Source: Bacteroidota bacterium (GTDB taxonomy: Bacteria; Bacteroidota; Bacteroidia; 2-12-FULL-35-15). From it: a DNA stretch of 64,000 bases. Under the pieces are notes generated by a model. The model made no database searches and was not told where the DNA came from. It saw only the letters and a list, made by a program, of their open reading frames with translations. The stretch's first letter is position 1, and each line of letters begins with the position of its first letter. The translations under genes were made by a program, and so were the position numbers. Positions 1 to 60,154 of the stretch are shown piece by piece. The stretch is taken from NCBI GenBank assembly GCA_947479085.1, contig CANJYB010000013.1:36632-100631 (forward strand). The letters are read 5' to 3'.

Positions 1-590
1 AAAAAATTTCCAAGAACAATATAACTATATGATGAATCGGCAATAAATGAACCAGCTATTCTTGTCCAATTCAAGGTATCAGTAATTATAGAATCACTAA
101 ATATCTGAGGATTATTTGTTATCGGTGCAGGATTAAAAATTGTATATGGGATAGTTGAAAACATTGCCCCAATTTTATTTGTGGCGCAATTTGTTGATAA
201 ACTGAAATCAACGCTTAATGCCACTTTTAAAGATACAAAATATTTTGTACCTATGGAAAGCTGAGAAGAAAGCATACTTCCAAGGAATTCTCTAGAATTT
301 GGACCAGTACTTGCATATGTTGCAAAAGCGCAATATGCGTTACCACTAGCTGCAATCTGGTAACCTCCCCAATTATTTGGCACAGACATATAAGAGGAAC
401 ACGAGTTCATATAATCAGGCGATCCTTTATAACTTGACCAATGAGTGCACTTATTTAATTCATTTGCCCCTATGGGGCAATTAATGGTGTCCTCGAAACT
501 TGGATTCATCACTATATTTATTTGCCCGTAACTTATTTTTCCTATAAATAGCAACATAAAAGGAAGAATTTTTCTTAATAATTGTTTCAT
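1..590 (-). CDS. secreted protein, N-terminal part only (the rest lies beyond the window start); paralog of 3561..4532
   Basis: Manual minus-strand translation from ATG at 590..588 gives MKQLLRKILPFMLLFIGKISYGQINIVMNPSFEDTINCPIGANELNKCTHWSSYKGS... and stays open to position 1. It shares the NPSFED...W.SY..SPDY pattern with ORF 3561..4532. Confidence 0.6.
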   Translation of the reverse strand, partial: MKQLLRKILPFMLLFIGKISYGQINIVMNPSFEDTINCPIGANELNKCTHWSSYKGSPDYMNSCSSYMSVPNNWGGYQIAASGNAYCAFATYASTGPNSREFLGSMLSSQLSIGTKYFVSLKVALSVDFSLSTNCATNKIGAMFSTIPYTIFNPAPITNNPQIFSDSIITDTLNWTRIAGSFIADSSYSYIVLGNF

Positions 591-918: not shown

Positions 919-958
919 AAAAAAAGCGCTCAGGGTTTTTAAACCCTGAACGCTTTTT
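919..958 (-). terminator. rho-independent terminator downstream of 994..3558
   Basis: Hairpin AGCGCTCAGGG-8 nt loop-CCCTGAACGCT with one mismatch. It is flanked by a 7-A run, which reads as a U-run on the minus strand, just after the stop at 994. Confidence 0.6.
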
Positions 959-993: not shown

Positions 994-3558
994 TTATTGT
1001 TTCACCATTTTCTTTGTTTCAAATATTTTTCCATCTACCACTAAAGTATAAGTATAAAGCCCGTTTGTTAAATCCTGTGCAAATACATTCAATTGCCCTT
1101 TTCCTCTTTGAGTAAGTTCAACCGATTGAATTAATTTACCACCTGCATTGTAAAATAGCATTTGTGCCTTGTTTACATCATCTGGTAAAAAATAACCAAT
1201 GGTAGTTTGCTCTGCAAAAGGGTTAGGAGAATTTTGATCCAAAATAATACTTTGCCCATCTGTTAGTTTTACATCCGTTTGCGATGTAGTATTGTTTTTA
1301 TTGCCATCATTATTATTCCCATTGCCTCCATTATTATTCATTTGTTGCGGAGAGTGATTTCTGTTGCAGCATTCGTTAATCAAATCACTTAAAGTGTTTA
1401 ATTGAGATTGCACAGCAGAGTTATTTGCTTTTAAACTATCCACTTGGTTTTGTAATGATGTGTTGATCGAATCTTGTTTTGTATTAACAGTTTTTAGGCT
1501 ATCCATTGATTTTGTTTGCTCTTGAATACCTTTTGTTAGAAGGGCAATAAATTCCAAATAATTTAAACCTATAAAACTTACACCTGGAGTTATTACATTT
1601 CCAACCGAATCAACAATCGCAGGTTTTTTAGATGACATAACCAGTTCCGGCAAAATTTGCTGAACATCCTGAGCTATAAATCCATATTGTTTCTTGCTTG
1701 AAAAATTTAATCCATATTGATTTAATGTGTCCATATAGAAAGTTCTTGGCTTTAGTTTTTTTATTATTTCTAAAGACCCGGTTATTGAATCAATATCTGT
1801 TTTAAATTGTTGATCAGAGATCCATACACCAAAAGTATTCCAACAGTTACCGTTTATATTTACATCTCCATCAAAATAGCCAGCCCACCTGTTTCCCATT
1901 GTTAGAGGGGTATTCACTGAAGTTGGATTACAGTTTCCATATATTGCTACGTCAACAGCGGCAGGAAAAGCAAAAGGGGGTAATCCTGGATAAACTACTG
2001 AATAGACACCGAAATTTTGCATTCCACCTGTATTCATTGGTGCTGGGGAAACTCCCTGAACTTCTGCTTTAACACCATAGTTGGTATATCCTCCTGGAGT
2101 GGGCGATTGTGCCATAAAATGACCACCCATATTATTATTACCCACTGCCCCATCGGCATTCCCTGTTACACCAATATTATTACCTGCACAGTTCCATGCT
2201 GTGAAAGACCCTCCAATATTATTATACGTTGCATTTTTAACATAGGATTGCGCAAATACTCCATAATAACTACTCATAGCTGTAGAATTTGCACCATTTG
2301 TAATAAACTGACCTGCAATATTAGCAGGAGATAAGGGCGGAACAGCAGCAGGCATAAGTGTTGCATCATTACTTACGTCTAACTTGGCCTGAGGACCTGC
2401 TGCCACACCTGATAGACCTATACCTACTCTTATACTATCTCCTCCAAGTATCATGGAATAATCTTTTGTAGCTATTGCATTAAAACCTATTGCAGTAGCC
2501 TGTGTAAGGCTGGTAGAAACATCCGCTAAAGTTCCAATAAATGTATTAAAACTTCCTGCCGTATTTGTAGTTCCTGCTTTTTCTCCTACAGCAACATTAT
2601 TGTGCCCTTTGCTGCTATAACCAGCTGCATGCCCAACATATACATTCTTATTTCCTGTACTATTAGTAAAGCCTGTTTCTTCTCCAATAAAAGTATTTTG
2701 ATTCCCAGTTGTATTATTCATCCCGGTACTTTCACCCATAAAACTATTTTCCGTTCCAGTGTTGTTTACTCCAGTTTGACTTCCAATAAAAGTATTTTGA
2801 TCTCCGGTAGATAATCGCCCTGCCCGGTATCCAACAAATGTATTAAAGTCATTTGTACTATTTGAAGTTCCTGCCTGATAACCAGTAAAAGTATTATTAC
2901 TACCCGTTGAATTAGCTACACCCGACTGATAACCTGAAAAAGTATTATTACTTCCGGTTTTATTAACTTTTCCAGATTCATATCCTGTAAAAGTATTATT
3001 GTCCCCTGTTGTACTTCCGCTAACTCCAAAACCTGCCCTATAACCGGCAAAAGTATTACCTGTGCCCGTTGTGTTATAAAGTCCGGATTGAAAGCCTGTA
3101 AAAGTATTATTATCCGCAGTAGTATTTGACCCCCCAGCTTGCATTCCCAAAAAGGTATTTTGGTTTCCTGTTGTATTTACCAAGCCTGACCCCGAACCCA
3201 TAAAAGTATTGTAAGTTCCGAATGTTAATCCATTTCCGGCATGGTCGCCAAACAATGAATTATCTGTGCCAGACGCAGTAGCATTAAAACTGTAATAACC
3301 AAAAGTGGTGTTTTTGTTACCGCTTTGGTCAAGTTGACCGGAAGGGGTGCCGCCAAGTTTAAAATTGATGTTTTGATTACCCTTATGTTCGATATTGAGG
3401 GGGTAAGTTGTTGCATTATCCCATCCACACCAATAGCCGAGTGACAAGCCAGCATGTCCAGTACCCGGTGCTGCAAGATCTGATTGTGAAAATAAATTGT
3501 AATGAGAGCTTACTATCATAAGTAGGCTCATTATTATTATTTGTTTTAATTTTTTCAT
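994..3558 (-). CDS. fibre/adhesin-like protein: signal peptide, about 18 YadA-head-like 14-15-aa repeats, peptidase S74 (intramolecular chaperone) domain, coiled coil, T9SS C-terminal sorting domain
   Basis: 854-aa ORF. NNTF(T/S)GYxxGxxNxTG repeats span roughly residues 85-345. Residues 581-685 read SDQQFKTDIDSI...KKQYGFIAQDVQQILPELV, which resembles tail-fibre S74 domains. The C-terminus NSPNPFAEQTTIGYF...LYTYTLVVDGKIFETKKMVKQ resembles a type-A T9SS CTD. Confidence 0.75.
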   Translation of the reverse strand: MKKLKQIIIMSLLMIVSSHYNLFSQSDLAAPGTGHAGLSLGYWCGWDNATTYPLNIEHKGNQNINFKLGGTPSGQLDQSGNKNTTFGYYSFNATASGTDNSLFGDHAGNGLTFGTYNTFMGSGSGLVNTTGNQNTFLGMQAGGSNTTADNNTFTGFQSGLYNTTGTGNTFAGYRAGFGVSGSTTGDNNTFTGYESGKVNKTGSNNTFSGYQSGVANSTGSNNTFTGYQAGTSNSTNDFNTFVGYRAGRLSTGDQNTFIGSQTGVNNTGTENSFMGESTGMNNTTGNQNTFIGEETGFTNSTGNKNVYVGHAAGYSSKGHNNVAVGEKAGTTNTAGSFNTFIGTLADVSTSLTQATAIGFNAIATKDYSMILGGDSIRVGIGLSGVAAGPQAKLDVSNDATLMPAAVPPLSPANIAGQFITNGANSTAMSSYYGVFAQSYVKNATYNNIGGSFTAWNCAGNNIGVTGNADGAVGNNNMGGHFMAQSPTPGGYTNYGVKAEVQGVSPAPMNTGGMQNFGVYSVVYPGLPPFAFPAAVDVAIYGNCNPTSVNTPLTMGNRWAGYFDGDVNINGNCWNTFGVWISDQQFKTDIDSITGSLEIIKKLKPRTFYMDTLNQYGLNFSSKKQYGFIAQDVQQILPELVMSSKKPAIVDSVGNVITPGVSFIGLNYLEFIALLTKGIQEQTKSMDSLKTVNTKQDSINTSLQNQVDSLKANNSAVQSQLNTLSDLINECCNRNHSPQQMNNNGGNGNNNDGNKNNTTSQTDVKLTDGQSIILDQNSPNPFAEQTTIGYFLPDDVNKAQMLFYNAGGKLIQSVELTQRGKGQLNVFAQDLTNGLYTYTLVVDGKIFETKKMVKQ

Positions 3559-3560
3559 AA

Positions 3561-4532
3561 TTATTGTTTTATAAATTTATAGTTAAATAATTTTTCTTTA
3601 TATAAAATTTGTAATATTAAGATGCCATCCGGATAATTAGAAATATCAATACTTAAATGGCTTGTATTGATATTTTCAGTTCGAAAAAGTGTTTGCCCAT
3701 ATATATTATAAACTGATAAATTAAACTTTCCCGTTAATTCAGGAAAATTTATTGATATATAATTAGAAGCAGGATTAGGGCTAATTATTATAATAGGATT
3801 TTCATTAATTTCATTTATTCCTACATAATTATATGTAAATGCAGAATCTGTGCTTACACAAATATCATCTATATAATAATAAGCTATATTTAATGTCGAA
3901 TTCATAAATTTTAATGTATCAGTATGAGTACTATCAAAAAAATTACCGAGCATTACATAATCATATGTTGAATCAGCGATAAAAGAACCAAATATTCTTG
4001 TCCAATTAAGAGTATCGGTAATAATAGTTGTGGAATATACTTTTGCACTATTAGTAATCGATGCAGGATTGAAAATACTAAATGGGGCAGTTGAAAAGTT
4101 AATCCCTATTTTATTTGTTGCATAATTTGATGGACAGGTTGTGCTGAGACTTAAAGCAATTTTAAATGAAGCAAAATATTTAGTTCCTATATTCAGGGGC
4201 GTTGAAAGTTGCCCTCCAATAATTTCCCTGTAATTAGGTGCTAGGCTCCAATATGTAATAAAACCTGCATAAGCATTACCGCTTGCTGCTTGTTGATACC
4301 CTCCAAAATTAATTGGCACAGAAGCCCCAAATGCACTTGGAGTGCAACAGGAATTAAAGTAATCGGGAGATGCACTATAACTGCTCCAATCAGTTGAATA
4401 ATTCATGTGGTCTGAACCTGGTGGGCAATGAACTGTATCCTCAAATGAAGGATTAGGAACAAGGTTAGTTTGTGCCATTAAAGTAATGAGAGATAAAACA
4501 AAACAGTAGGCAAGAATGAACTTTCTTTTCAT
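3561..4532 (-). CDS. secreted T9SS cargo protein of unknown function
   Basis: 323-aa ORF with a signal peptide (MKRKFILAYCFVLSLITLMAQ). C-terminus SPNPASNYISINF...ILILQILYKEKLFNYKFIKQ looks like a T9SS CTD. Only a 2-nt gap separates it from the downstream ORF 994..3558. Confidence 0.65.
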   Translation of the reverse strand: MKRKFILAYCFVLSLITLMAQTNLVPNPSFEDTVHCPPGSDHMNYSTDWSSYSASPDYFNSCCTPSAFGASVPINFGGYQQAASGNAYAGFITYWSLAPNYREIIGGQLSTPLNIGTKYFASFKIALSLSTTCPSNYATNKIGINFSTAPFSIFNPASITNSAKVYSTTIITDTLNWTRIFGSFIADSTYDYVMLGNFFDSTHTDTLKFMNSTLNIAYYYIDDICVSTDSAFTYNYVGINEINENPIIIISPNPASNYISINFPELTGKFNLSVYNIYGQTLFRTENINTSHLSIDISNYPDGILILQILYKEKLFNYKFIKQ

Positions 4533-4915: not shown

Positions 4916-5133
4916 GGCGGGCGGCCACTTAATCATTGGTACAGGTGAAACAAGTCTGCACCTGTCAGGTTATGTACTTTTAAGAAACATACTGAAAGGT
5001 TATTAAAAGCCTTACCGCATCAACCTGCGCCCGATTGCAGTGAAAAGCCCGAAGTGTGTTGGCTTTTTGCGCAGCCGGACTTGTAACGGAAAGCGGGAGG
5101 ACAGTTAATGAAAAGGCAGAAACTGCCCGCCCG
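4916..5133. other. GC-rich intergenic island of nested hairpins (candidate structured RNA, family unknown)
   Basis: A 7-bp GC closing stem (GGCGGGC at 4916-4922 with GCCCGCC at 5125-5131) encloses several helices. These are ACAGGTG/CACCTGT (4941-4965), CTGCGC/GCGCAG (5025-5074), and inside that AAAAGCC/GGCTTTT (5043-5067). By eye the island is far more GC-rich than its flanks. Confidence 0.25.
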
Positions 5134-5168: not shown

Positions 5169-8036
5169 TTATTGCTTCACCACACTTTGTTTCCACAATA
5201 CATCAGCATTCTCGCCCACCAACCTTACAAAATAAACTCCGTTTTCAAATTCTTCCAGGTTTATTTTCAAAGAAGATTTCCCTCCCGGCAGGGTATATTT
5301 TTGCTGAACTATTTTATGGCTCAATACATCATATAATTCCAAAGTCACATTTCCTTTTAAGGAAGCCACATCCAGTATAAATTCGTTTTGAGCAGGGTTA
5401 GGGTATCCTTTTATAGTGCCGGAAAGCATATCGGAAACACCCGTAACAGTAGTAATGGTGGCTGTAACCGGCACGCGGGGACTGGTGCAGACCACAGGTG
5501 CAGCCTGAACCACCCAGTCGTAAAAATAATAGTAATACGGAAGTCCCTGGCTGGAGCCGGTTATAGAGAGTTCGTTATTGATGGTATAAGGGTAGGCTGC
5601 ACTGCTGTTGCTTCTCCATAAGTAAGGGTTAATGTTATTGTTCCCGAAATTAGCTGCATTTACAGAATCGTTGGTGGTAAGCCTGAAGGTGGTGCCGGGA
5701 GTTAACGGCCAGTTAAGGCTTACCACAGTGGTGTCTGCCGGCAGGTTGATTAACAGGGAATGAAGCACTGTACCCGAATTATCTCTTAATTCAATTTTAC
5801 GAACGCCAACAGAATCGGTATATACCTTTACACTCTGCAAGGTACAAGGCACCAACACATCAAAAAACATTTGCCCGTTGGTAAGGTAATCGTTGTAAAA
5901 ATTAGACCCAATATGATAAGGTTGCCCCACATTAGCCACAGCACCAGAATAGGTAGTGGTGGCATCCACATAATAATCAGTGGTGGTATTGATAACGGGT
6001 GTGGTGTAAGTAGTTCCGGTGGTTAACAATGTTCCGCCCGAAATGGAATCGTACCAGGAAAGCGCTCCGGGTGCGCTTGCATATAATGTCAGGGAAGTTG
6101 GGCCTGTTCCGGTAGCTCCTGTACCAACGGGTGCAGGGTTGGAAAGAACATTTACAGAATCAGGTGCAGAAGTATAGTTTCCGCAAATGCCTGTTATAGT
6201 AACAATGTAAGTTCCTGTTTCGGGAGGATGAATGGATGCGGTGGTGGCGGTAAAGTTGTTGGGCCCTGTCCATAAGTAAGCGGAAGCAGGGCTGCTGGTT
6301 AAGGTCACTGTTCCTTCGCAAGGCAATGAAGTGCCGGTAGTGGTCACCAATGGTGTTTCGTTGGATGGAGGGATGACATGTACAGTAGGCGAAATATTGC
6401 TGCAACCTGCGGCATTGGTAACTTTCACGTTGTAATACCCCACTGCTGAAACATTGATGGATGGGGTAGTAGCCCCGTTAGACCATAAATAAGAACTGAA
6501 TCCGGGAGGTGCAGTAAGGGTTCGCGTTTGCCCGGTACATAATACAAATGGCCCTTGTATAATATTGCCGGTGATGGTGCAACCGCCTTCCACAGCGGTA
6601 ACAAACTGGTCGGCCTGTAAATTATAAAAGTAAGAATGTAAATGAGAAGGCCAGTCGATGCGGGCCGAATCAATGGTGGTATTGGTTCCTAATCCAAAGT
6701 GCATTTGCATGGAATTGGAAGTTCCGTAACTATCACCCGCATGTATTTCCCTTATCTGTTTTCCCCATGCACCGTAAATAGTAATTCGCGCCCCGATGGC
6801 ATTGGAATCGCTGACAGTTCCTATCAAATCGAACGTGATAAAATGATTGTTATTAACGGTGGAATTGAGATACAATATATCCGGATTATTAGTGGGATTA
6901 TTATAGGCCTGCCCGTAGGAAGTATACATATCTGTTTTACCGTCATGGTTCAAATCGCCTGTGGCAAAGGAAAGCATGCCGTAATTAACAGCAGCATTAC
7001 CGGAAACTAAAGAAAATGTTCCGTTACCATTATTATGATAAAAATACATCATATAACCTGAAACTAAAATATCCAGGAAACCATCGTTATCAAAATCCTC
7101 CACAGTTGATTCGAGTGGGTCTGCAAAAACATTAAAGCCGGTCATACCTGTAATGTCAGTATAATGACCTGTTCCGTCATTCTGCAAAATCTGGCTGGGC
7201 TCCCCATGGTTGGTTTTTACTATATCCAAATCACCATCGTTATCCAAATCGCCAAAACTGGTGGTCCAGGTTTGTTTATAATCAAAAGTTTCTATTCCAT
7301 AAGCTCCTGCCTGGTCGGTATACACATTGCTTCCATTATTTACAAACAGCCTGTCCTTTCTTCGAAGGTCGCCATTACTGTTTACTCCTTGCCGGCAATG
7401 CGCTACATACATATCCAGATCCCCATCATTATCAAAGTCGGTCCATACACTTCCGTAATTTCCTGAATCGTAACCACTGTATATATTAGTAACCATAAGC
7501 GAAAAATCGAAGTTTAAAACACCTGCGGTATTTCTGTACACCTTCGGAAAGTCGTCATCATCGCAAACAAATAAATCTACCCAACCATCATTATTAAAAT
7601 CTCCGAAAGTAATGTTCTGCACAAAGTAACTTCCACCAAGAATAACGGAAGAATAAGTAACCATGCCCCCGTTTGAAAAAAGTTTCACCAGGAAAATTGC
7701 TCCATAGCCTCCCACCGCCACATCTTTCCATCCATTGTGGTCCACATCAGCAGCCGACATTCCCCAGGCACCGATATAACTTCCCAACGAATCGCGGGTA
7801 TAAGTACCATCCTGCTGTTGAAGTTGGAGAATTAAAAAATAACCCTGATCCATTATTAACATATCGTCCAGCCCGTCATTGTTAACATCCACCACGGTAA
7901 CGGCATTGCCACTATAGGTTAAAAAAGGTAATGAAGAATTGGAGTTGGTAAATGTGAATTGAGCTTGCGCAGAAGCTGATAACAGCAAAGTAGCTGCAAC
8001 TAAAATCAGCGAACGGGTAAGAGTAATTTTTTTCAT
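5169..8036 (-). CDS. FG-GAP/VCBS-repeat (ASPIC/UnbV, CRTAC1-like) protein with Ig-like region and T9SS C-terminal domain
   Basis: 955 aa with a signal peptide. Repeated DxNxDGxxD motifs are present (DVNNDGLDDMLI, DFNNDGWVDLFV, DFDNDGDLDMYV, DLDNDGDLDIV). There is an UnbV-like segment NAIGARITIYGAWGKQIREIHAGDSYGTSNS. C-terminus GYPNPAQNEFILDV...VYFVRLVGEN looks like a T9SS CTD. Confidence 0.75.
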   Translation of the reverse strand: MKKITLTRSLILVAATLLLSASAQAQFTFTNSNSSLPFLTYSGNAVTVVDVNNDGLDDMLIMDQGYFLILQLQQQDGTYTRDSLGSYIGAWGMSAADVDHNGWKDVAVGGYGAIFLVKLFSNGGMVTYSSVILGGSYFVQNITFGDFNNDGWVDLFVCDDDDFPKVYRNTAGVLNFDFSLMVTNIYSGYDSGNYGSVWTDFDNDGDLDMYVAHCRQGVNSNGDLRRKDRLFVNNGSNVYTDQAGAYGIETFDYKQTWTTSFGDLDNDGDLDIVKTNHGEPSQILQNDGTGHYTDITGMTGFNVFADPLESTVEDFDNDGFLDILVSGYMMYFYHNNGNGTFSLVSGNAAVNYGMLSFATGDLNHDGKTDMYTSYGQAYNNPTNNPDILYLNSTVNNNHFITFDLIGTVSDSNAIGARITIYGAWGKQIREIHAGDSYGTSNSMQMHFGLGTNTTIDSARIDWPSHLHSYFYNLQADQFVTAVEGGCTITGNIIQGPFVLCTGQTRTLTAPPGFSSYLWSNGATTPSINVSAVGYYNVKVTNAAGCSNISPTVHVIPPSNETPLVTTTGTSLPCEGTVTLTSSPASAYLWTGPNNFTATTASIHPPETGTYIVTITGICGNYTSAPDSVNVLSNPAPVGTGATGTGPTSLTLYASAPGALSWYDSISGGTLLTTGTTYTTPVINTTTDYYVDATTTYSGAVANVGQPYHIGSNFYNDYLTNGQMFFDVLVPCTLQSVKVYTDSVGVRKIELRDNSGTVLHSLLINLPADTTVVSLNWPLTPGTTFRLTTNDSVNAANFGNNNINPYLWRSNSSAAYPYTINNELSITGSSQGLPYYYYFYDWVVQAAPVVCTSPRVPVTATITTVTGVSDMLSGTIKGYPNPAQNEFILDVASLKGNVTLELYDVLSHKIVQQKYTLPGGKSSLKINLEEFENGVYFVRLVGENADVLWKQSVVKQ

Positions 8037-20900: not shown

Positions 20901-21006
20901 TGAGAATGACCGATATTAGATGTCGGCTGACCGATGAAAGTTGGTCTCTTTATACTTGATTTTTAATAAAAACCTACTTTTTTTGTTTTTGCCTTATGTC
21001 CAACAA

Positions 21007-21258
21007 CCAAGTGAGTAAAATGAATCCTTTTTGCTTACTTCCCAGTTACCAAGTAAGCAAAATGAATCCTTTTTGCTTACTTCCCAGTTACCAAGTAAGC
21101 AAAATGAATCTATTTTGCTTACTTCCCAGTTACCGAGTAAGCAAAATGAATCTCTTTTGCTTACTTCCCAGTTAACAAGTAAGCAAAATGAATCTTTTTT
21201 GCTTACTTCCCTGTTGATAAGGATGCGAAATGAATCCTTTTTGCTTACTTCCTAAGTG
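21007..21258. repeat. tandem array A1: 6 x 42 bp, each unit containing a 10-bp perfect hairpin
   Basis: Unit is CCAAGTAAGCAAAATGAATCCTTTTTGCTTACTTCCCAGTTA. TTGCTTACTT and AAGTAAGCAA are exact reverse complements. Unit starts are 21007, 21049, 21091, 21133, 21175 and 21217. Confidence 0.9.
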
Positions 21259-21301
21259 TATGTTGCATATAATCAGTATTTTGAAATAATTATTTCAATT
21301 T

Positions 21302-21379
21302 TGCCTTTGTTGCTATTTTCACCAACAAACACTGAAGTAAGTTTAGTTCGTTTGCACTTAAAAAACACCTGCAAAGGCA
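21302..21379. repeat. tail module T1 (78 bp, closed by TGCCTTTG/CAAAGGCA); repeated at 21656..21734
   Basis: TGCCTTTGTTGCTATTTTCACCAACAAACACTGAAGTAAGTTTAGTTCGTTT...ACCTGCAAAGGCA aligns by eye with 21656..21734, with scattered substitutions. There is an internal TTGTTG/CAACAA hairpin. Confidence 0.8.
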
Positions 21380-21418
21380 TAAAACCTACTTTTTTTGTTT
21401 TGGCCTTATGTCCAACAG

Positions 21419-21652
21419 GGAGGTAAGCCCGTACACTTGTCCGAGCTTACTTCCCAGTTAGGAGATGGGTTCGGACAAGTGTTTGCTCAAACCTCCCAAT
21501 TAGGAGGTAAGGCCAAACACTCGTCCGGGCTTACTTCCCAGTTAGGAAGTTAGTCCGTACACTTGTCCGAGCTTACTTCCTTGTTGGACATAACCTCCGG
21601 ACACTTGTTTTGGCATACTTCCCAGTTGGGAAGTGAGTCCGTACACTTTTAG
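21419..21652. repeat. tandem array A2: about 5.5 x 42 bp, sharing the CTTACTTCCCAGTTA core with A1
   Basis: Units start at 21419, 21461, 21503, 21545, 21587 and 21629. The conserved core is GCTTACTTCCCAGTTA with a variable ~26-nt part. Units 1 and 2 contain ACACTTGTCCGA and TCGGACAAGTGT, a 12-bp inverted pair. Confidence 0.85.
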
Positions 21653-32009: not shown

Positions 32010-32040
32010 TTGAATTCCCTTTTTTCCTTCATTCCTTAAA

Positions 32041-32187
32041 TCCTTTAGGGTGTTCCTGAAGTCCTTTAGGGTATTCCCGAAATTCTTTAGGGTATTCCCT
32101 AAATCCTTTAGGGTGTTCCCGAAATTCTTTAAGGTGTTCCTGAAATTCTTTAGGGTGTTCCCGAAATTCTTTAGGGTGTTCCCGAAC
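32041..32187. repeat. tandem array: 7 x 21 bp (T(C/T)CTTTAGGGTGTTCCCGAAA)
   Basis: Units start at 32041, 32062, 32083, 32104, 32125, 32146 and 32167. The unit 3/4 junction forms a perfect CCCTAAA-TCC-TTTAGGG hairpin. Confidence 0.9.
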
Positions 32188-32359
32188 TTTTCTCCTACAT
32201 TAAGGAAATTGTTTCAGGGCATTCCCATTTCTTGTGTTTCATTAGACAGGAGATATTGTTTAACAATAAGTACCTGAATCTTTAAGCTTATAAACCAATA
32301 TAAACAAAAAGACCATTGATTAATATCAATGGTCTTTCCGAGAAATAAATTAAAAATAA

Positions 32360-33886
32360 TTATTTTACCAATAACATTCGTTTTGTTTCAGTAAAAATAA
32401 CTTTGTTGTTTTGTTTTGCTTCCATTTTGTAAAAATAACTTCCTGAGTTAAATGCGGAAATATCAGCTAATTCTACAGTATGATTTCCTGCTGTAACTTC
32501 GCTTGAAGAGTAAATGGTTTTTATTTTTCTGCCGGTAACATCATATAAATCTATGTTTACAGAGGCTGTTTGACTAATACTGAAATCTATTTGAGTTTTT
32601 CCGTTGGTAGGGTTCGGGTAATTTTGTCCCATGGTGTTTTCTATGGCATCGTTGGTAGCAATACCAACTCCGGATGTATGACATATTTTGAAAATTGTTC
32701 CCGCAACGGTGTATCCGCCTTTCATGGCGTAAATGCAACCATCAGCTCCTTGTTTCATTGAGGTCAATCCTCCAGTGGTTACATCAGCAAAAGTTACGTT
32801 AGATGTTACTACATCATAAGCAGGAGCATTTCCCATAGTTAAATTATAAATTTTGCCATTGTCATTATCTCCAACAAGTATGTGGTTATCAAATTCAGAC
32901 ATTATCGAACCTGAATAATAAAGACATCCTGTAACTGCCGGAGGATTACTCCAGGTTGCAATAGGACGAATATCTCCTGTTAAGTTGCAAGCTGTGGTGG
33001 TGGAGCCATTCATAAAATTCCCTTCGCAAGTGGCCCATCCGTAATTTCCTCCTTTATGAATAACATTGAATTCATCCCAGGTATTTAACCCATTTTCACT
33101 TGAATACATTGTATCTGTAACAGGACTGAAACACATACCAAACATGTTCCTGTTTCCGTAAGTCCATATTCTGTCATCATTTCCAACAGCAGGATTACCA
33201 TCATCATAATAAGGATTATCTGTTGGAATAGTTCCGTTTTTATTAATTCTTAATATTTTACCAAAAGGATAATTTAACTTATTTGCCATATTGGTAGCAG
33301 GTACTGTTTGGTTATAAGCAAGGTCACCTATCTGAACATATATTTTATCAGGCTGGCTCGGGCGGAAACGAATAATACCTCCAAAGTGATTACCTGCAAT
33401 GGCAATTGCCTGTCCGTTTACATTCGTTAATCCATTAACACTAATATCCATTATTATAGTAGGATTGGTACCTACGTTAGCATTTTCGGTAAATCTTAAA
33501 ATTCTGCAGGAATTAGCGGTTAACCACTTATGTACATAATAAACATAAACATAATGGTTGTTTGCAAAGTCAGGATCTATGGCAATACCAAGTAACCCTC
33601 TTTCAAAATCGCAATTAACTGAATCGGTTAGATCGTAAAAAGTAGAAAGTAAAACACCTGCTGAGCTATATACCAATATTTTTCCGTTGGCACATGAGCC
33701 TGCCGCGTTACCTCCTTTTTGATTAATAAAGTATCGCCCGTCAGCAGTCCAATCCCAATCGGTTGGATACTGTAAACCGGTAACAATATTAGTTTGAGTA
33801 TACATTGCCGGCAATGCCTGTGCATGTAATTTTAAAGAAGCAGTGATGGTAAACAAAACTGCAAAAGCAAGTAGTATTTTTTTCAT
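32360..33886 (-). CDS. PQQ-dependent sugar (glucose/sorbosone) dehydrogenase-like beta-propeller with T9SS C-terminal domain
   Basis: Signal peptide and ERGLLGIAIDPDFANNHYVYVYY. C-terminus QNYPNPTNGKTQIDF...SYFYKMEAKQNNKV...LLVK looks like a T9SS CTD. Confidence 0.65.
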   Translation of the reverse strand: MKKILLAFAVLFTITASLKLHAQALPAMYTQTNIVTGLQYPTDWDWTADGRYFINQKGGNAAGSCANGKILVYSSAGVLLSTFYDLTDSVNCDFERGLLGIAIDPDFANNHYVYVYYVHKWLTANSCRILRFTENANVGTNPTIIMDISVNGLTNVNGQAIAIAGNHFGGIIRFRPSQPDKIYVQIGDLAYNQTVPATNMANKLNYPFGKILRINKNGTIPTDNPYYDDGNPAVGNDDRIWTYGNRNMFGMCFSPVTDTMYSSENGLNTWDEFNVIHKGGNYGWATCEGNFMNGSTTTACNLTGDIRPIATWSNPPAVTGCLYYSGSIMSEFDNHILVGDNDNGKIYNLTMGNAPAYDVVTSNVTFADVTTGGLTSMKQGADGCIYAMKGGYTVAGTIFKICHTSGVGIATNDAIENTMGQNYPNPTNGKTQIDFSISQTASVNIDLYDVTGRKIKTIYSSSEVTAGNHTVELADISAFNSGSYFYKMEAKQNNKVIFTETKRMLLVK

Positions 33887-38602: not shown

Positions 38603-40072
38603 TTAATTTCCTAAAGAGTAAACAGCAAAATTAACATCATTATAAACAGTTTTAAAGGATTTTGATAAATCAACCAATGGTAGATTATTTTTATCTATAA
38701 ATACATATTTACATCCTTGCAATTTTATCGAATCTATTGTTGTTAAGTTTGAAATGTCTGAGTTAGACAAACTCCACCCCCTGCGGTTCAAAAAATACAT
38801 CACCTGTGGACTCTTATCTCCATTAATTGCAACTAAATCATTTTTAGCTGTTACTTTGTTTGCAACGGGTTCCATTTCCAGCTTGTATTTTTCCGAATCC
38901 CTTATCCTGAAATCATCCTGTTGGTTTAGTAAACCTTCAATCAATATAACTGTAATTAATACAATTCTTATTCTAACTTTCTTTATCTGTATAATTGCAA
39001 ATCCTGTTATTAAGGCCATTATTGGTACGTATGGGATAATGTAATAACTATGTGTAGAAAAAACATAACCGGTTTTGCACATAAAGAGAAAGAAAATACC
39101 GGAAGCAATTACAAAAACTAAAACAAGAACTTTCTGTTTTTCTCTTATCATAAAATAAAGTCCTGCCAGGAACAAACCAAACGCAACAAAACTCTCTAAA
39201 GCAATAAAGTAAAACTTTTCAAATGTATCCGTAGCATAATTTATTAAATCCTTAAATCCTTCTAACAAACCTCTTGGAAAGTAAAGCTGAACCTTGTAAG
39301 TGGCCAGCAGATAGGGATCCCAATAGAAATACCAAATGCACATCACCAATAAAACAAACAAACCTCCTGCGGAAATGTATATTTTGTTCTTAACGGGTAT
39401 TGTTTTATCAAACATTGGAATAGCCATTACGCTTAATAAATACACAGCAGGTATTTTGCACAAAACAGCTAACGAAGAAAGAATAATAAATAATAAAAGA
39501 TGTACACGTTTGTTTTCATATAAATAGATCAATCCATAGTATATGCCAATAATAACAACAGAAATACAAAACGTATCAGGCATCGATTTCCTGCTGTGTG
39601 CAAACCAAAGGGAGGACAATAGAATAAGTACAGCATAAAATGCTAAAGATTCAGAAAAGAAACGTTTGATTATTTTATAAAAATAAAATATTCCAATGGA
39701 TGAAATTACTAGATTTATTAGTCGACCGTACCAATGAGCATAACCAAATATCTTCGCTATTATGTAGATTAAATAATTAAACATCGGAAATTCAGTTGCC
39801 ATTATTCCTGGTTTATTTCCATTTACATCAATTCGTGGATATAGAATATTATTATCAATTTGAAGGAAATTTCGTGCAATCATATTGGTCAGCGATTGTC
39901 TCCAGTTATGTCCCATTTCAAGGGGAGCATTGGTTATTCCATATAGGCGAAGAGTAAAAAAGAGCAGAATCCAGAAACGAATATCATTCAGCCAGTTTTC
40001 CTTTACATAAATTAACTTTTGTTTAAAATCCTTTCTCATCTCTTTCGGCAAAGCTAAAAACAATTCTAGCAA
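38603..40072 (-). CDS. GT-C fold (ArnT/PMT-like) membrane glycosyltransferase
   Basis: 489 aa, more than 10 TM segments, and a soluble C-terminal domain. The start is uncertain: TTG at 40072 or ATG at 40039. Confidence 0.45.
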   Translation of the reverse strand: MLELFLALPKEMRKDFKQKLIYVKENWLNDIRFWILLFFTLRLYGITNAPLEMGHNWRQSLTNMIARNFLQIDNNILYPRIDVNGNKPGIMATEFPMFNYLIYIIAKIFGYAHWYGRLINLVISSIGIFYFYKIIKRFFSESLAFYAVLILLSSLWFAHSRKSMPDTFCISVVIIGIYYGLIYLYENKRVHLLLFIILSSLAVLCKIPAVYLLSVMAIPMFDKTIPVKNKIYISAGGLFVLLVMCIWYFYWDPYLLATYKVQLYFPRGLLEGFKDLINYATDTFEKFYFIALESFVAFGLFLAGLYFMIREKQKVLVLVFVIASGIFFLFMCKTGYVFSTHSYYIIPYVPIMALITGFAIIQIKKVRIRIVLITVILIEGLLNQQDDFRIRDSEKYKLEMEPVANKVTAKNDLVAINGDKSPQVMYFLNRRGWSLSNSDISNLTTIDSIKLQGCKYVFIDKNNLPLVDLSKSFKTVYNDVNFAVYSLGN

Positions 40073-41971: not shown

Positions 41972-42113
41972 GGTTACCCCCCATACCATAAACCATTACC
42001 CCCCATACCATAAACCATTACCCCCATACCGTAAACCATTTCCCCCCATACCATAAACCATTACCCCCTTACCGTAAACCATTTCCCCCCATACCTTAAA
42101 CCATTACCCCTCC
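41972..42113. repeat. tandem array: about 6.5 x 21-22 bp, C5-6 tract per unit (G-tracts on the minus strand)
   Basis: Unit is CATTACCCCCCATACCATAAAC. Starts are 41972, 41994, 42016, 42037, 42059, 42080 and 42102. C-runs are 6, 6, 5, 6, 5, 6 and 4. Confidence 0.9.
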
Positions 42114-42256
42114 TTCATATTTTGTAACCCTATCTACTATAAACAGTAATTTTATCATAAACACATCTTCACCCTTATTCCTTATTACAATCAATTCCGC
42201 CAACTTTACAATTCATTTCCTTAAAATTGACAACCCCATCATGCAAAATACTTCGA

Positions 42257-42625
42257 GCATTTTAATCCTAATTGGCGAAGCCAATCAAAATCTTATTTTA
42301 TCCTAAATAATCATATAAAATCCGCGTTCCCATCATACCCAACTTTCATCCGTCATCCAACACGAGTCATCGGTCAAAAGGTTTCGGGCATCCTTAATCC
42401 TAATTGGCGAAGCCAATCAAAATCTTATTTTATCCTAAATAATCATATAAAATCCGTGTTCCCATCATACCCAACTTTCATCCGTCATCCAACATGAGTC
42501 ATTCTTCAAATGGTTTCGGGCATCCTTAATCCTAATTGGCGAAGCCAATCAAAATCTTATTTTATCCTAAATAATCATATAAAATCCGCGTTCCCATCAT
42601 ACCCCAACTTTCATCCGACCACCCA
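42257..42625. repeat. tandem repeat: about 2.8 x 132 bp immediately upstream of mutS
   Basis: TAATCCTAATTGGCGAAGCCAATCAAAATC... recurs at 42263, 42395 and 42527. Each unit carries the ATTGGC-GAA-GCCAAT hairpin. Confidence 0.9.
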
Positions 42626-48202: not shown

Positions 48203-48850
48203 GTGAAAGCCTTTTTTAAAACTAATTTCTACTTTCTTTTTCCATACCTTGTTTTTGTTCTATTTGGTATCATTTGGATAATCAGAGATTCGAAAGCAGA
48301 AAAGCACCTAGAGTTTAATTCGTTTCACAATTCTTTTTTCGATTCCTTTTTCTATTACTTTACTTTTCTGGGAGATGGCTTTACTGCTGCACTTGTCATA
48401 ATAGTTCTTTTAACCGTTAATATAAGAATTGGATTGTTTGCCGGATTATCGAATATTATTTCGGCTTTAGTTACCCAGCTTCTCAAACATACCTTATTTG
48501 CTGATGTAGTTCGTCCAAAGAAATTTTTTGAAGGTATGCATGATTTGTACTTTATACCCGGAGTAGATAATTATTTGTATAACAGCTTCCCTTCAGGGCA
48601 CAGCACTTGCGCCTTTTCTTTATATTTAGCTTTATCATTAATTACAGAAAACAAAATATTAAAATTAATATTCTTTACAATTGCGGGCCTTGTTGGATAT
48701 TCACGCATATATTTGTCTCAGCATTTTTTCGAGGATGTTTATGCTGGTTCTATTGTAGGAGTTGTTTTTACGTTATTAGTTTATTATTTGATGACAAAAA
48801 TAAAACGCGATTGGATGAACAGGTCCTTAATTAAAATTTCAGGAAATTAA
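48203..48850 (+). CDS. PAP2-family lipid phosphatase
   Basis: Motifs KHTLFADVVRP, SFPSGHS and SRIYLSQHFFEDV, with 5-6 TM segments. GTG start, with a TAATTTTG -7 box at 48176..48183. Confidence 0.75.
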   Translation: MKAFFKTNFYFLFPYLVFVLFGIIWIIRDSKAEKHLEFNSFHNSFFDSFFYYFTFLGDGFTAALVIIVLLTVNIRIGLFAGLSNIISALVTQLLKHTLFADVVRPKKFFEGMHDLYFIPGVDNYLYNSFPSGHSTCAFSLYLALSLITENKILKLIFFTIAGLVGYSRIYLSQHFFEDVYAGSIVGVVFTLLVYYLMTKIKRDWMNRSLIKISGN

Positions 48851-50487
48851 TGAATTCAACAGTTCTTAGGAATAATATTTTTATTGCAGCGGCAGCTTTT
48901 TTATTGTTTGTTCCTTTTTTAGGTGCGGTGCATTTATTTGATTGGGACGAAATCAACTTTGCTGAATGTGCCCGTGAAATACTGGTTACTCATGATTATT
49001 TTTCGGTGAAAATTAATTTTCAGCCTTTTTGGGAAAAGCCTCCTGTGTTTATCTGGATGCAGGCCTTGTCCATGTCGGTTTTTGGTATTAATGAATTTGC
49101 AGCTCGATTACCAAACGCCATTTGTGGAATTATTACCCTTTTAGTTTTATTTAATATCGGAAGAAAATTAGTTGATGAACGTTTTGGTTTAATTTGGGTG
49201 CTGGCCTATGCAGGCTCGTTACTGCCTCATTTTTATTTCAAATCAGGAATTATTGATCCATGGTTTAATCTTTTTATTTTTTGTGGATTCTATTATTTTA
49301 TTTTGTTTACCAATAATAAAAATACCAGATTACTTATCTTATCAGCGCTTTTTATCGGGTTAAGTGTTTTAACTAAAGGGCCTGTAGCGGCTTTGGTATT
49401 TGGTTTATGTTTGGGTGTTTATTGGATAATAAAGCGATTTCAACCTGTTTTAAATATAAAAGAGATTCTGATTTACATTTTAGCTGTTGCTACAGTAGGG
49501 GGGCTCTGGTTTCTCATGTTAGTATTAACAGGTAACACAAGTATCATAAAAGAATTCTTTTTATACCAGGTCAGGTTGTTTAATACTCAGGATGCTGGGC
49601 ATGGTGGGCCATTTTATTATCATTGGTTGGTTTTGCTAATCGGATGTTTTCCGGTTTCTGTTTTTGCGCTGCGAAGTTTCAGGAAAAGCAGTTTCGATAC
49701 CCCATATCAAAAACATTTTAAATTATGGATGATGATTCTGTTTTTTGTAGTGTTGATTTTATTTAGCATCGTTAAAACTAAAATTGTTCATTATTCTTCC
49801 TTGTGCTATTTCCCTTTAAGTTTTATGGGTGCCTATGTAATTTACAAGCTGATTAATCTGGAAATGCAATGGAAAAAAATAACAACAATTTTACTCATTA
49901 GTATTTCTGGAATATTAGGAATCATACTATTAGCGTTACCTTTCGTTGACAAATACAAGCAAAGTATTATTTCATCCAATCTGATTGAAGATAGCTTTGC
50001 AATTGAGAATTTGAAAGCCAATGTTCATTGGTCGGGTTTCGAAGGGATAATTGGAGTGTTATTAATAGCTGGGGTAGGAGTGATGCTGGTTTTAATTAAG
50101 CTTAAAAAATCAGTACAAGGAATCGCAGGGCTTTTTGTTATTAGTCTTGTAGTTGTTAATTTGACGGCTTTAATTATTGCTCCTAAAATTGAGCAATATT
50201 CTCAGGGAGCAGCAATAGAATTTTATCAGTCATTAAGAGGCAAAGATTGTTATGTAGAAACTTATGGATATAAAAGTTATGCCAACCTTTTTTATTCTGA
50301 CAAACCGAATCCGATTAATAGAAACAGTTTAGACATGGACTGGTTGCTTCGCGGAAAGATAGATAAACCGGCCTATTTTGTTTGCAAAAACATAGACTCG
50401 GAGGAAATGGAGAAAAGATACGAGGAATTAAAGGAGTTATACAGAAAAAACGGATTTGTGTTTTTGGTAAGAATCCCCAAAAAATAA
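48850..50487 (+). CDS. ArnT-like (GT39/GT83) undecaprenyl-phosphate-sugar-dependent glycosyltransferase
   Basis: WDEINFAECAREIL and EKPPVFIWMQA motifs, with more than 10 TM segments. The start overlaps the PAP2 stop (TAATG). Confidence 0.75.
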   Translation: MNSTVLRNNIFIAAAAFLLFVPFLGAVHLFDWDEINFAECAREILVTHDYFSVKINFQPFWEKPPVFIWMQALSMSVFGINEFAARLPNAICGIITLLVLFNIGRKLVDERFGLIWVLAYAGSLLPHFYFKSGIIDPWFNLFIFCGFYYFILFTNNKNTRLLILSALFIGLSVLTKGPVAALVFGLCLGVYWIIKRFQPVLNIKEILIYILAVATVGGLWFLMLVLTGNTSIIKEFFLYQVRLFNTQDAGHGGPFYYHWLVLLIGCFPVSVFALRSFRKSSFDTPYQKHFKLWMMILFFVVLILFSIVKTKIVHYSSLCYFPLSFMGAYVIYKLINLEMQWKKITTILLISISGILGIILLALPFVDKYKQSIISSNLIEDSFAIENLKANVHWSGFEGIIGVLLIAGVGVMLVLIKLKKSVQGIAGLFVISLVVVNLTALIIAPKIEQYSQGAAIEFYQSLRGKDCYVETYGYKSYANLFYSDKPNPINRNSLDMDWLLRGKIDKPAYFVCKNIDSEEMEKRYEELKELYRKNGFVFLVRIPKK

Positions 50488-51239: not shown

Positions 51240-51493
51240 CGCAGGGGCAAAAGTAAGAAAATATATTAATTGTGTTTAATAGTGAATTGTTTTATCAATG
51301 ACTGAAAATGCCGAGAAGGAAAATACTTTGGCTTATTTCGTGTTTGCTGGAATGGATACAAAGAAGAAAAAATGAATATAGAAAGTGATTGATTTGTGAA
51401 AAAAGTCACAATAAGTCAGGGGTGAATCAACATTTGTAGTAAGATAATGATGATTGATTGGCCGGAATCAACCTTAGGGGTAAAAGGACCCTG

Positions 51494-51703
51494 CCCGCAA
51501 ACGTTTGGGATAGCATTTCCTTTTTCGGAAACCCGCCCGGAAACGTTCGGGATAGCATTTCCTTTTTCGGAAACTCGCCCGCAAACGTTTGGGATAGCAT
51601 TTCCTTTTTCGGAAACCCGCCCGGAAACGTTCGGGATAGCATTTCCTTTTTCGGAAACCCACCCGCAAACGTTTGGGATGGTATTTCCTTTTTCGGAAAT
51701 CAT
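51494..51703. repeat. tandem array: 5 x 42 bp in two alternating subtypes (true period 84 bp) with palindromic cores
   Basis: Units start at 51494, 51536, 51578, 51620 and 51662. Odd units carry the perfect palindrome CAAACGTTTG (51498, 51582, 51666). Even units carry GAAACGTTC. All units carry TTTCC-TTTTTC-GGAAA. Confidence 0.9.
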
Positions 51704-51941
51704 GATTGTTATACCAGGAGTCAGTCTTCGAGGTATTAGATTCATGATTGTTTTGCCAATAATTATCCTTAAGGGTGAAATAATTATAAAAGGAAGAAAC
51801 AAAAATCTTTTCGCTCTTTTATAGGAGTAATGAAATACATAATAAATAAGGTAAAAAGAATATTCAGAAATCAACATTTATTGCCTTAATAATTGTTTTA
51901 TAAAAAATCGCTACATTTACATCGATTTAATAATACCTTTT

Positions 51942-52445
51942 ATGCTTTTTAAGCGAATACTTACTTTGTTCCTTATTATTAATAGTTCCCTCATCATTGG
52001 ACAAACTATTCAGAGGGAAAGCCATTTCAGTTCTGCCGGTAATTATTCAAATAATGCCGGAATAATATTGCAATCGAACATTGGTGAGATGATGATTACT
52101 ACCGAAAATAATGGTCAGAACATGTTTATACAGGGATTTGTTCAGCCTGAACCGGTTATACTTACTTCTATTCCTTCCCTTTCCGGAATGGGAGGGAGCG
52201 TATATCCTAATCCGGTTATCAATAATCTTGTTGTACAGATTTATTTTGCAGATTGTTCAGATTTAAAAATAGAAGTTTTTGATGTATTAGGTAAAAAGCA
52301 GCTTTTTAAAAGAGAAGAAAATCAGTTCAACGGATATGTAAATTATGAATTGAATTTCCAGTCCTTTTCTGCCGGAATTTATTTTGTTAGAGTTGTTTCA
52401 GAAAGAAATCAATTTAATAAGACCTTTAAGATTAATAAAATATAA
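51942..52445 (+). CDS. small secreted protein consisting of a short N-terminal region plus a T9SS C-terminal sorting domain
   Basis: 167 aa with a signal peptide. SVYPNPVINNLVVQIYF...AGIYFVRVVSERNQFNKTFKINKI looks like a T9SS CTD. A 2-nt gap separates it from the next ORF. Confidence 0.65.
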   Translation: MLFKRILTLFLIINSSLIIGQTIQRESHFSSAGNYSNNAGIILQSNIGEMMITTENNGQNMFIQGFVQPEPVILTSIPSLSGMGGSVYPNPVINNLVVQIYFADCSDLKIEVFDVLGKKQLFKREENQFNGYVNYELNFQSFSAGIYFVRVVSERNQFNKTFKINKI

Positions 52446-52447
52446 CC

Positions 52448-54424: not shown

Positions 54425-54449
54425 AAATATTGTTTGTAAAAAATATAAA

Positions 54450-57683: not shown

Positions 57684-57691
57684 AAAGTACC

Positions 57692-59152: not shown

Positions 59153-60121
59153 ATGGAAATCAAAAAAATAATATATAACGGGTTAGTATTTTTATTATTG
59201 TTCTCATTAATATACTTTCCTTCCCTGGTTTTAGTTTGCAAACTGAATTTTAAAAAGAAGCCTTTAATATATAGAACATCTGATATATACACTCTAAAAG
59301 GAGGGAACAGCTATCAGAAATTCAAGGAATTTAATAAGGAAAAGAAATATGATATTATCGTAATAGGTTCTTCCCATGCCTACAGAGGATACGATCCCCG
59401 AAATTTCAAAAAAGCAGGAATAAGTGTTTTTAATCTTGGAACTAGTGCTCAAACACCTCTAAATTCTTATATAATTGCAAAAAATTATGTCACTGCCTCA
59501 AATTGTAAACTAGTTATTTTGGACGTTTACGATGGAGCTTTTCATAATAATGGTTTCGAATCTTCCTCTGACTTAATTCAAAACCTTTCGTCTAATAAAG
59601 CAGCTTTTGAAATGGCCACAACTTATAATAACCCTCAGGTTATTAATATGTATGCATTGAGGTTGATTAATCAGAATAGTCCTGTTATTTATACCGATAG
59701 CCTTTATGTTGGAAATGGTTTTAGTGAAAAAAGGGACACCCTGAAGTATTCTCTTCCTTTTGATGAGTATGAAAACAGGTATCTTCCTAATGAATTGCAA
59801 ATTGACTACTTGGAAAAATTATTAAGCTATTTTAATTCAAATAATATTCCTGTAATTATGGTTACAGTGCCTTTTCCAAAAGAAAAAATAAAAGAACAAC
59901 ATAAAATATATAGTAAAATATTTAATGATCTTGCTTTAAAACATCATGTAAGGTACTTAGATTATTCATTTAATACTAATTTTAATTCGCAAACTCATTT
60001 TTATGATTCTCACCACTTAAATCAAACAGGGGTTGATTTGTTTAATAGTATTTTATTACAGGATTTTAAAAAGATGAAAATTCTTGAAGAAGAAGGTATT
60101 AAGTTTAATATTAAAAATTAA
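59153..60121 (+). CDS. SGNH/DUF1574-like partner of the MBOAT acyltransferase (AlgJ/X- or DltD-like role inferred)
   Basis: N-terminal TM anchor, block I-like VIGSSHA and block V-like YDSHHLN (D-x-x-H). It begins 1 nt after the MBOAT stop. Confidence 0.5.
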   Translation: MEIKKIIYNGLVFLLLFSLIYFPSLVLVCKLNFKKKPLIYRTSDIYTLKGGNSYQKFKEFNKEKKYDIIVIGSSHAYRGYDPRNFKKAGISVFNLGTSAQTPLNSYIIAKNYVTASNCKLVILDVYDGAFHNNGFESSSDLIQNLSSNKAAFEMATTYNNPQVINMYALRLINQNSPVIYTDSLYVGNGFSEKRDTLKYSLPFDEYENRYLPNELQIDYLEKLLSYFNSNNIPVIMVTVPFPKEKIKEQHKIYSKIFNDLALKHHVRYLDYSFNTNFNSQTHFYDSHHLNQTGVDLFNSILLQDFKKMKILEEEGIKFNIKN

Positions 60122-60154
60122 TTAATTCGTTACCAAACTATAAAAATTGGATCG

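Follow-up and report, generated by a model that had tools for sequence, protein, structure and literature searches.

A predicted self-cleaving chaperone domain upstream of a type IX secretion signal in a Bacteroidota fibre protein

How is a fibre protein exported when a predicted self-cleaving domain lies between the fibre and its only export signal? This question is raised by an open reading frame (ORF), 994..3558 on the minus strand (stop codon included), in a 64,000-nucleotide stretch of DNA from a Bacteroidota bacterium (GenBank assembly GCA_947479085.1, contig CANJYB010000013.1, positions 36,632 to 100,631; called the window here). It encodes an 854-aa fibre, as a first-pass annotation of the sequence had described. 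That annotation placed a phage-type S74 chaperone domain ahead of a type IX secretion system (T9SS) C-terminal sorting domain (CTD) and offered two ways out of the resulting paradox. Either export precedes cleavage, and chaperone and CTD form one disposable folding-and-export cassette, or cleavage is suppressed. We find that the fusion of the two domains is no one-off but a large Bacteroidota family. The answer we prefer, with a probability of roughly 0.55, is that the gene encodes a homotrimeric surface or secreted fibre whose last 274 residues are a disposable "trimerise, export, release" cassette, and that export or engagement with the T9SS comes before the cut.

Domain architecture and conservation of the cassette

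In a Pfam scan, the module that begins at Ser581 was matched by PF13884 (Peptidase_S74, the "chaperone of endosialidase" or ICA domain; residues 581–640, E-value 2e-13) with 50.8 bits against a gathering score of 22. The module opens with the motif S581-D-Q-Q-F-K586. The CTD was reported by neither Pfam nor NCBIfam when the full-length 854-aa protein was scanned. With the last 94 aa scanned alone, it passed the cut-offs of both PF18962 (28.6 bits; gathering score 27) and TIGR04183 (30.4 bits; cut-off 23). An AlphaFold2 (AF2) monomer model of residues 575–854 was computed from an alignment of 90 sequences and has a mean predicted local distance difference test (pLDDT) score of 85. It consists of the ICA core, one unbroken helix (residues 669–733) that ends at Cys730-Cys731, core and helix both with a pLDDT above 90, a disordered Asn/Gly stretch with a pLDDT below 50 over residues 747–770, and a β-sandwich. 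Foldseek against the Protein Data Bank (PDB) returned the ICA domain of MyRF (7dc3) as the top match. The CTD of the T9SS protease mirolase (8qb1) ranked fourth with an E-value of 6e-4, and the CTD of PorU was also among the matches. No PDB match was obtained by phmmer with the full-length fibre; a profile of the cassette was needed. This profile matched the phage long-tail-fibre tip 6f45 (2e-15), MyRF 7dc3 (8e-12), the tail fibre 8jov and the GA-1 appendage chaperone 3gud, in alignments that span the Ser, the Lys and the terminal helix. The match to 6f45 starts approximately 45 residues ahead of Ser581, and the helix at residues 669–733 aligns with the one that makes up the coiled coil in the ICA domains of MyRF and phages. 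Because the matches come from curated profiles and at the level of the fold, the ICA and CTD modules are both real and stand in the order that the first-pass annotation gave. The type-A CTD of the fibre is bona fide. The region described as a coiled coil is a single helix in the monomer model, and the Asn/Gly linker is found where it had been placed.

The signal peptide was read from the sequence by eye rather than by a predictor. It has typical n-, h- and c-regions and a predicted cut between MKKLKQIIIMSLLMIVSSHYNLFSQ and Ser. The repeats downstream had been described as about 18 units of a trimeric-adhesin (YadA/Hep_Hag) head. The number was roughly right: we counted 15 strict N[TSV]xxG units at residues 100–354, spaced by 16–17 residues (once 20), with degenerate copies at both ends. 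The assignment was not borne out. The YadA_head profile scored 12.8 bits, under its gathering score of 25, and Pfam gave no match to a YadA anchor barrel in the fibre at E ≤ 1, the C-terminus being the T9SS CTD. The "trimeric-adhesin head" is a resemblance of the repeats and not a profile match. The distal part of the fibre (residues 355–580) would form a free C-terminal tip once cleaved.

Among the candidates scored, 5046 relatives of the full-length fibre were found at E < 1e-5. The best 120 were parsed with hidden Markov models. Forty-six have S74 followed by a terminal CTD 150–240 residues later, about 40 have a phage-like terminal S74 and no CTD, and the remainder lack S74. When the cassette alone (ICA, helix, Cys-Cys, linker and CTD) was used as a 280-aa query, it matched proteins of 244–2041 aa from end to end at 40–78% identity, with quite different N-termini. 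A representative library of 1.84 billion proteins, clustered at 50% identity, held 1072 matches at E ≤ 1e-30 and 7506 at E ≤ 1e-10; the cassette lies at the extreme C-terminus in all of the best 150. In all 271 parsed proteins S74 is followed by a CTD, the end of which lies no more than 5 residues from the C-terminus. A scan across GTDB, with each species represented by one genome, yielded at least 472 cassette loci. The best 80 of these all have Bacteroidota record titles (Flavobacteriales, Chitinophagaceae, Saprospiraceae, Bacteroidales and an Arcticibacter metagenome-assembled genome), and among the loci listed several Bacteroidota genomes carry more than one copy. The fusion had been treated as peculiar to this gene, and these counts overturn that view. 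A block conserved across more than 1000 clusters fits the idea of a disposable folding-and-export cassette.

The NCBI name for the family is "tail fiber domain-containing protein", JGI names some homologues "trimeric autotransporter adhesin", and for some the database label PF26696 (PTL_trimer) is recorded. A full-text literature search found no description of S74 or ICA together with T9SS. One outer-membrane vesicle proteome lists, without comment, a 362-aa Tannerella "tail fiber domain-containing protein". Neither the ICA nor the CTD is new in itself; the literature found describes neither their combination, nor the class-specific Cys-Cys and linker, nor the partner gene treated below, despite thousands of examples of the cassette in the databases.

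S581 and K586 align with positions 587 and 592 of MyRF; the crystallised 7dc3 chain has Ala at 587 (the S587A mutant). S587 and K592 of MyRF have been equated with S911 and K916 of endoNF, both residues are indispensable, and cleavage of the MyRF ICA requires trimerisation and nothing more (PMC8326128). The S-x4-K dyad is present in 269 of the 271 proteins with the order S74 then CTD, the two exceptions being ORFs truncated at the Ser, and in all 40 CTD-less S74 forms. An aromatic "cutting-hole" position (LKPRTFY) also seems conserved, judged by eye in the profile alignment. The retained Ser and Lys argue that the cassette still cuts. As far as the sequence can tell, the paradox is genuine: an ICA domain with an intact dyad sits between the fibre and its sole T9SS signal.

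We compared two paralogous cassette fibres of this genome segment by segment, by identity and by the ratio of nonsynonymous to synonymous substitution rates (dN/dS). Over residues 26–380, the N-terminal part, identity is 20–40% (66% in the 351–400 window), dN/dS is 0.44 and dS is 1.61. The ICA (residues 581–700) is 50–58% identical with a dN/dS of 0.16 and a dS of 2.12. The distal helix, Cys-Cys and linker (residues 701–775) are 92–98% identical, with a dN/dS of 0.027 and a saturated dS of 1.37. For the CTD (residues 776–854) the corresponding values are 96–100%, 0.06 and 0.26. Taken together, the two proteins are 92–100% identical from about residue 700 onwards and 96–100% over the last 100 or so residues, but at the DNA level the 498 nt that encode this shared stretch agree at only 88.8%. 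On these values, no other part of the fibre is as constrained as the segment that follows the ICA, which is under strong purifying selection, and the CTD would therefore be in use. Recent gene conversion as the source of the near-identical C-termini was rejected for residues 701–775 (dS 1.37, dN/dS 0.027); for the CTD, with its dS of 0.26, gene conversion is possible in part.

The Cys-Cys pair distinguishes the two classes of protein. It is present in 203 of the 271 cassette proteins, at a median of 32 residues ahead of the CTD, and in none of 39 true CTD-less S74 fibres. One protein in the CTD-less set (P0003) does bear the pair, but it is a cassette protein truncated where its contig ends. 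Since disulfide knots cap other trimeric rods, we infer that Cys730-Cys731 is an interchain lock formed in an oxidising compartment.

Order of cleavage and export

In the sequence of events that we propose, the protein would reach the periplasm via Sec. Starting at the C-terminus, the ICA and the long helix would nucleate the trimer, as happens in phage tail fibres and MYRF, and the Cys-Cys pair at the helix end would probably lock the three chains in the oxidising periplasm. The three CTDs would then pass the thin fibre to the T9SS. PorU would remove the CTD, and the stub would be released or attached to the surface. The Ser581/Lys586 dyad would cut between Ile580 and Ser581, freeing the mature fibre (approximately residues 26–580) from the ICA-helix stub. 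This cut would expose the distal tip of the fibre, and the stub would be shed with whatever is left of the export signal. A CTD is useful only if the cut follows export or if the two trimers remain associated until export. Selection appears to keep both the dyad and the CTD, and therefore either export or T9SS engagement would precede the cut, or the cut fibre would stay lodged in the stub until export.

The reading that we prefer is favoured by the two modules being real in sequence and fold, the conservation of the cassette as a single block on quite different N-termini, the retained dyad, the constraint downstream of the ICA, the Cys-Cys pair specific to CTD-bearing forms, the GenBank phage records that lack the CTD part, the chromosomal context and the conserved adjacent partner, and by MYRF, in which an ICA domain ahead of a membrane anchor releases the N-terminal trimer (PMC3742443, PMC8326128). 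Several points weigh against it. T9SS cargo has been proposed to fold in the periplasm (PMC10202324). If folding is periplasmic and cleavage needs trimerisation only, the simplest kinetics would place the cut before export, and the fibre would lose its CTD. The autocleavage itself is predicted from conserved residues. Around half of the cassette loci show no partner gene within 5 kb, a tblastn search and 55 inspected fibre N-termini gave no clear sign of an N-terminal fibre domain that co-varies with the partner, and what the partner does is a guess. Phage chaperones dissociate once cleaved. To our knowledge, no oligomeric T9SS cargo has been documented.

The alternative in which the fibre stays lodged differs in where the cut falls. 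Autocleavage would take place in the periplasm at trimer formation, and the cut fibre, held non-covalently in the ICA "donut", would exit on the CTDs of the stub and fall off outside; the stub trimer would be stabilised by a Cys-Cys knot. T9SS cargo is proposed to be folded before transport (PMC10202324), and ICA cleavage is triggered by trimerisation (PMC8326128), both as this alternative would have it. A stub that must stay a rigid trimeric carrier would make sense of the class-specific Cys-Cys and of how extremely the helix end and the linker are constrained. The CTD-less S74 fibres of the same genome, which lie directly downstream of a small CTD-only protein, are compatible with non-covalent export by a CTD. 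However, phage and MYRF ICA fragments part from the N-terminal trimer after cleavage (PMC3742443), and the T9SS is not known to carry non-covalent complexes. At the level of sequence, its order of events looks the same as that of the order we prefer. We regard it as possible but doubtful.

We consider it improbable that the cassette does not cut at all. The ICA would then be a C-terminal trimerisation module only, and the fibre would be anchored covalently via PorU and anionic lipopolysaccharide (A-LPS), like a trimeric-autotransporter-style adhesin that uses the T9SS. The repeat-rich passenger does resemble adhesin heads, and some of the JGI names point the same way. Non-cleaving Ser-to-Ala mutants of ICA domains elsewhere (endosialidases) still trimerise. 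Were catalysis dispensable, however, the near-universal retention of the dyad in cassette proteins and CTD-less forms alike would be unexpected, and so would the seemingly conserved aromatic position. Suppressed cleavage, the weaker branch of the first-pass alternative, is disfavoured because the dyad is kept in the cassette as it is in the CTD-less forms.

That this is a tail-fibre gene of a phage, prophage or tailocin, with an incidental CTD-like tail, as its NCBI family name, the match of its ICA part to phage tail fibres and one IMG/VR contig might suggest, is very unlikely: the flanks hold housekeeping and other T9SS cargo genes and none of phage, the fibre has a Sec signal peptide (read by eye), the CTD appears to be under purifying selection, and the CTD was covered by none of 237 matching GenBank phage records. 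A prophage or tailocin origin was accordingly rejected on the chromosomal context and the phage-record searches. Among the best 80 IMG/VR loci, 79 match only cassette residues of about 6–116, that is, the ICA. The sole full S74+CTD locus among them (L091:1..1194) lies at a contig end and adjoins a gene for an S24 (LexA/CI-like) repressor; this one ambiguous contig could hold host flank or prophage cargo.

The cassette can be compared with several known systems. The phage ICA domains (endoNF, the S16 long tail fibre 6f45 and the GA-1 neck appendage 3gud) are homologous, with the same S-x4-K and the same C-terminal helix, and likewise stand directly after a repeat-rich fibre. They lie at the extreme C-terminus and act in the cytoplasm, whereas here approximately 120 residues follow (Cys-Cys, linker and T9SS CTD). 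The gene here is chromosomal and encodes a putative Sec signal peptide, so that both the terminal position and the phage context are absent. In MYRF and Dictyostelium MrfA, the ICA also lies between a functional N-terminal trimer and a membrane-targeting or tethering element, and cleavage releases the trimer (PMC3742443, PMC3828593); for MYRF, two independent trimers result (PMC3742443). The MYRF ICA is the closest structural match of the cassette model. These proteins differ in being eukaryotic, in having a transmembrane-helix anchor in the endoplasmic reticulum rather than a secretion signal, and in their DNA-binding-domain cargo, and homology is confined to the ICA. The cassette may be viewed as the MYRF arrangement transplanted into the T9SS pathway.

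With type-A T9SS cargo (gingipains, mirolase, RemA/SprB-type adhesins) the fibre shares a putative signal peptide, a C-terminal β-sandwich CTD, the TIGR04183 match and the 8qb1 fold match, and other CTD cargo genes lie nearby. It departs from described cargo in its predicted trimerisation-triggered autoprotease ahead of the CTD. We know of no described T9SS cargo with a self-cleaving module between passenger and CTD, nor of any that is an obligate trimer. The YadA family (type Vc) embodies the same concept, in that a C-terminal module trimerises and moves an Asn/Gly-rich repeat fibre across the outer membrane, and some homologues, including another fibre encoded in the window, do match YadA_head. 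YadA proteins are exported through a self-inserted barrel; the fibre here has no anchor barrel and a sub-threshold YadA_head score, and T9SS export is proposed. The Bdellovibrio fibres (bd2133, 8ond; "cell wall surface anchor family protein", 8ojn/8ol4) are also chromosomal and phage-fibre-like. The "GIGTTxP" segments of short cassette homologues match 8ond and 8ojn; these matches extend over no more than the N-terminal stalk motif of the homologues, and the Bdellovibrio proteins are not known to have an ICA+CTD cassette.

The stage at which T9SS cargo is definitively folded has been stated to be unclear (PMC10202324). An assembly-triggered cut between passenger and export signal makes this question directly testable. 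The cassette family would also be the first indication of the T9SS handling obligate trimers. Phage fibres and eukaryotic MYRF each use the ICA domain independently, and the cassette adds a third such use. A bolder scenario, which we think rather unlikely as a whole, is that Bacteroidota turned a phage fibre-maturation module into a T9SS-specific, self-removing tag for obligate homotrimers that severs itself once it is outside. After its release, the fibre would be captured, tip outward, by the co-transcribed CTD partner resembling a carbohydrate-binding module (CBM), as a phage-tail-fibre-like appendage, and the CTD-less S74 fibres would be served in trans by small upstream CTD-only proteins. 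In this scenario the cut reports trimer folding, and the place where T9SS cargo folds could naturally be probed with the cassette family.

Partner gene and tandem unit

Table 1. Features of the fibre gene, its partner and their immediate surroundings, in window coordinates.
Feature	Position	Strand	Basis or remark
Sec signal peptide, residues 1–25	3484..3558	-	Read off the sequence by eye; without lipobox Cys
Repeat region, residues 83–354	2497..3312	-	15 clear NTFxGxxxGxxNxTG-type units of 16–17 residues each
Distal fibre part, residues 355–580	1819..2496	-	Alignment A3; ends WAGYFDGDVNING...VWI right before the predicted cleavage site
Predicted autocleavage site Ile580/Ser581 and catalytic dyad Ser581...Lys586 (SDQQFK)	1801..1818	-	Profile alignment to MyRF
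ICA (Peptidase_S74) core, residues 581–668	1555..1818	-	PF13884; profile matches; Foldseek
Long C-terminal ICA helix, residues 669–733, presumed trimeric coiled coil	1360..1554	-	AF2 pLDDT >90
Cys730-Cys731 at helix end, candidate interchain disulfide knot	1366..1371	-	Conservation of Cys-Cys
Asn/Gly-rich linker, residues 734–770, predicted disordered	1249..1359	-	pLDDT <50
T9SS type-A CTD, residues 771–854	997..1248	-	PF18962, TIGR04183, Foldseek
Partner gene, 323 aa	3561..4532	-	Signal peptide; CBM-like β-jelly roll at about 20–235; T9SS type-A CTD at 250–323
Terminator-like hairpin, 17-bp stem and T run	921..958	-	36 nt past the fibre stop
Terminator-like hairpin after upstream FG-GAP/CTD gene	5114..5132	-	
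Second partner gene, 5' part, cut by the window edge	1..590	-	327 aa in full

The fibre gene is preceded by a second T9SS cargo gene, whose stop codon lies 2 nt ahead of the fibre ATG. This translational adjacency had been pointed out in the first-pass annotation, as had the paralogue at the window edge, and both hold. The conserved operon partner and a second complete partner-plus-fibre unit had been missed. The CTD of the partner scored 36.9 bits in the Pfam/TIGR scan. The AF2 model of the partner has a pLDDT of 92. By Foldseek, its jelly roll is closest to CBM16, CBM4 and CBM61, and its CTD superposes on the substrate CTDs in the F. johnsoniae translocon structures 8glk and 8gl8 and on 8qb1; a profile search agrees on the CTD. 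The partner belongs to a uniform family: we found 1856 relatives, nearly all of 300–345 aa and each with a terminal CTD, and the N-terminal 230 residues are free of Pfam domains.

The association was surveyed in 65 genome loci in which the 5' end of the cassette fibre ORF is intact. Of these, 37 have a jelly-roll homologue upstream on the same strand; in 29 of the 37 the distance is at most 60 nt, typically 10–15 nt. The closest homologue of the fibre (P0002) has the same partner neighbour. In the reverse direction, two of three partner homologues are directly followed by an S74 fibre, and the third has an S74+CTD fibre 2.2 kb downstream. The partner, presumably co-transcribed with the fibre gene, probably works with the fibre on the surface, for instance as a docking or co-adhesin subunit. 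The two genes define an abundant, unnamed fibre-plus-partner unit in environmental Bacteroidota, annotated only as "tail fiber domain-containing protein".

The hairpins listed in Table 1 bracket this two-gene unit (4532->994). The fragment at the window edge is 60% identical to the 323-aa partner over 179 aa. L004, a longer contig from this genome whose encoded proteins are identical, has at L004:5016..8490, directly downstream of the first unit, the 327-aa partner and, after 1 nt, an 829-aa cassette fibre (P0241). The partner-plus-fibre unit is tandemly duplicated, and the window edge cuts the second copy.

The flanks of the unit are chromosomal (parA/parB, dapB, lepB, nth and the Bacteroidota-specific DUF5683 and DUF5684), and no phage genes were seen among the flanking genes examined. 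Directly upstream lies a T9SS cargo gene (5169..8036, minus strand) whose 955-aa product is a CTD-bearing FG-GAP/ASPIC/Ig_7 protein. Another cargo gene, at 32360..33886 (minus strand), encodes a 508-aa glucose/sorbosone dehydrogenase that also has a CTD. Among the window ORFs scanned, none was identified as encoding a T9SS component; the window encodes at least five CTD proteins, and a T9SS is therefore implied to exist in the host.

Second fibre locus and other window features

A second fibre locus is located at 51942..56447 on the plus strand. It starts with a 167-aa CTD protein, which consists of a signal peptide, around 60 residues and a CTD (45.5 bits), and continues 2 nt later with two tandem S74 fibres that lack a CTD. 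These fibres (658 and 665 aa) are 41% identical to each other and have signal peptides and an SDRxKK dyad; the second matches YadA_head at 36 bits. A Williamwhitmania contig (L089:951..10250) has the same layout, with a 162-aa Por_Secre_tail protein followed by four tandem CTD-less S74 fibre genes. The 162-aa and 167-aa proteins are 25% identical over 138 aa (E 2e-14), and the homology extends upstream of the CTD. The two loci suggest that a fibre may either carry its CTD in cis or be paired with one in trans.

Tandem-repeat arrays lie between genes at 21006..21648, 32031..32226, 41974..42617 and 51488..51699; their periods are 21, 42 or 132 nt. The last of these (42 nt x 5), immediately upstream of the second fibre locus, yields a spurious repetitive ORF at 51416..51877 (minus strand). 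Around this locus and directly downstream of it there are three genes for PMT_2 (ArnT-like) glycosyltransferases together with GT4, MBOAT and GT2 genes (38603..40072, minus strand; 48850..50487 and 56472..61690, plus strand), which may form a surface-glycan or glycosylation cluster.

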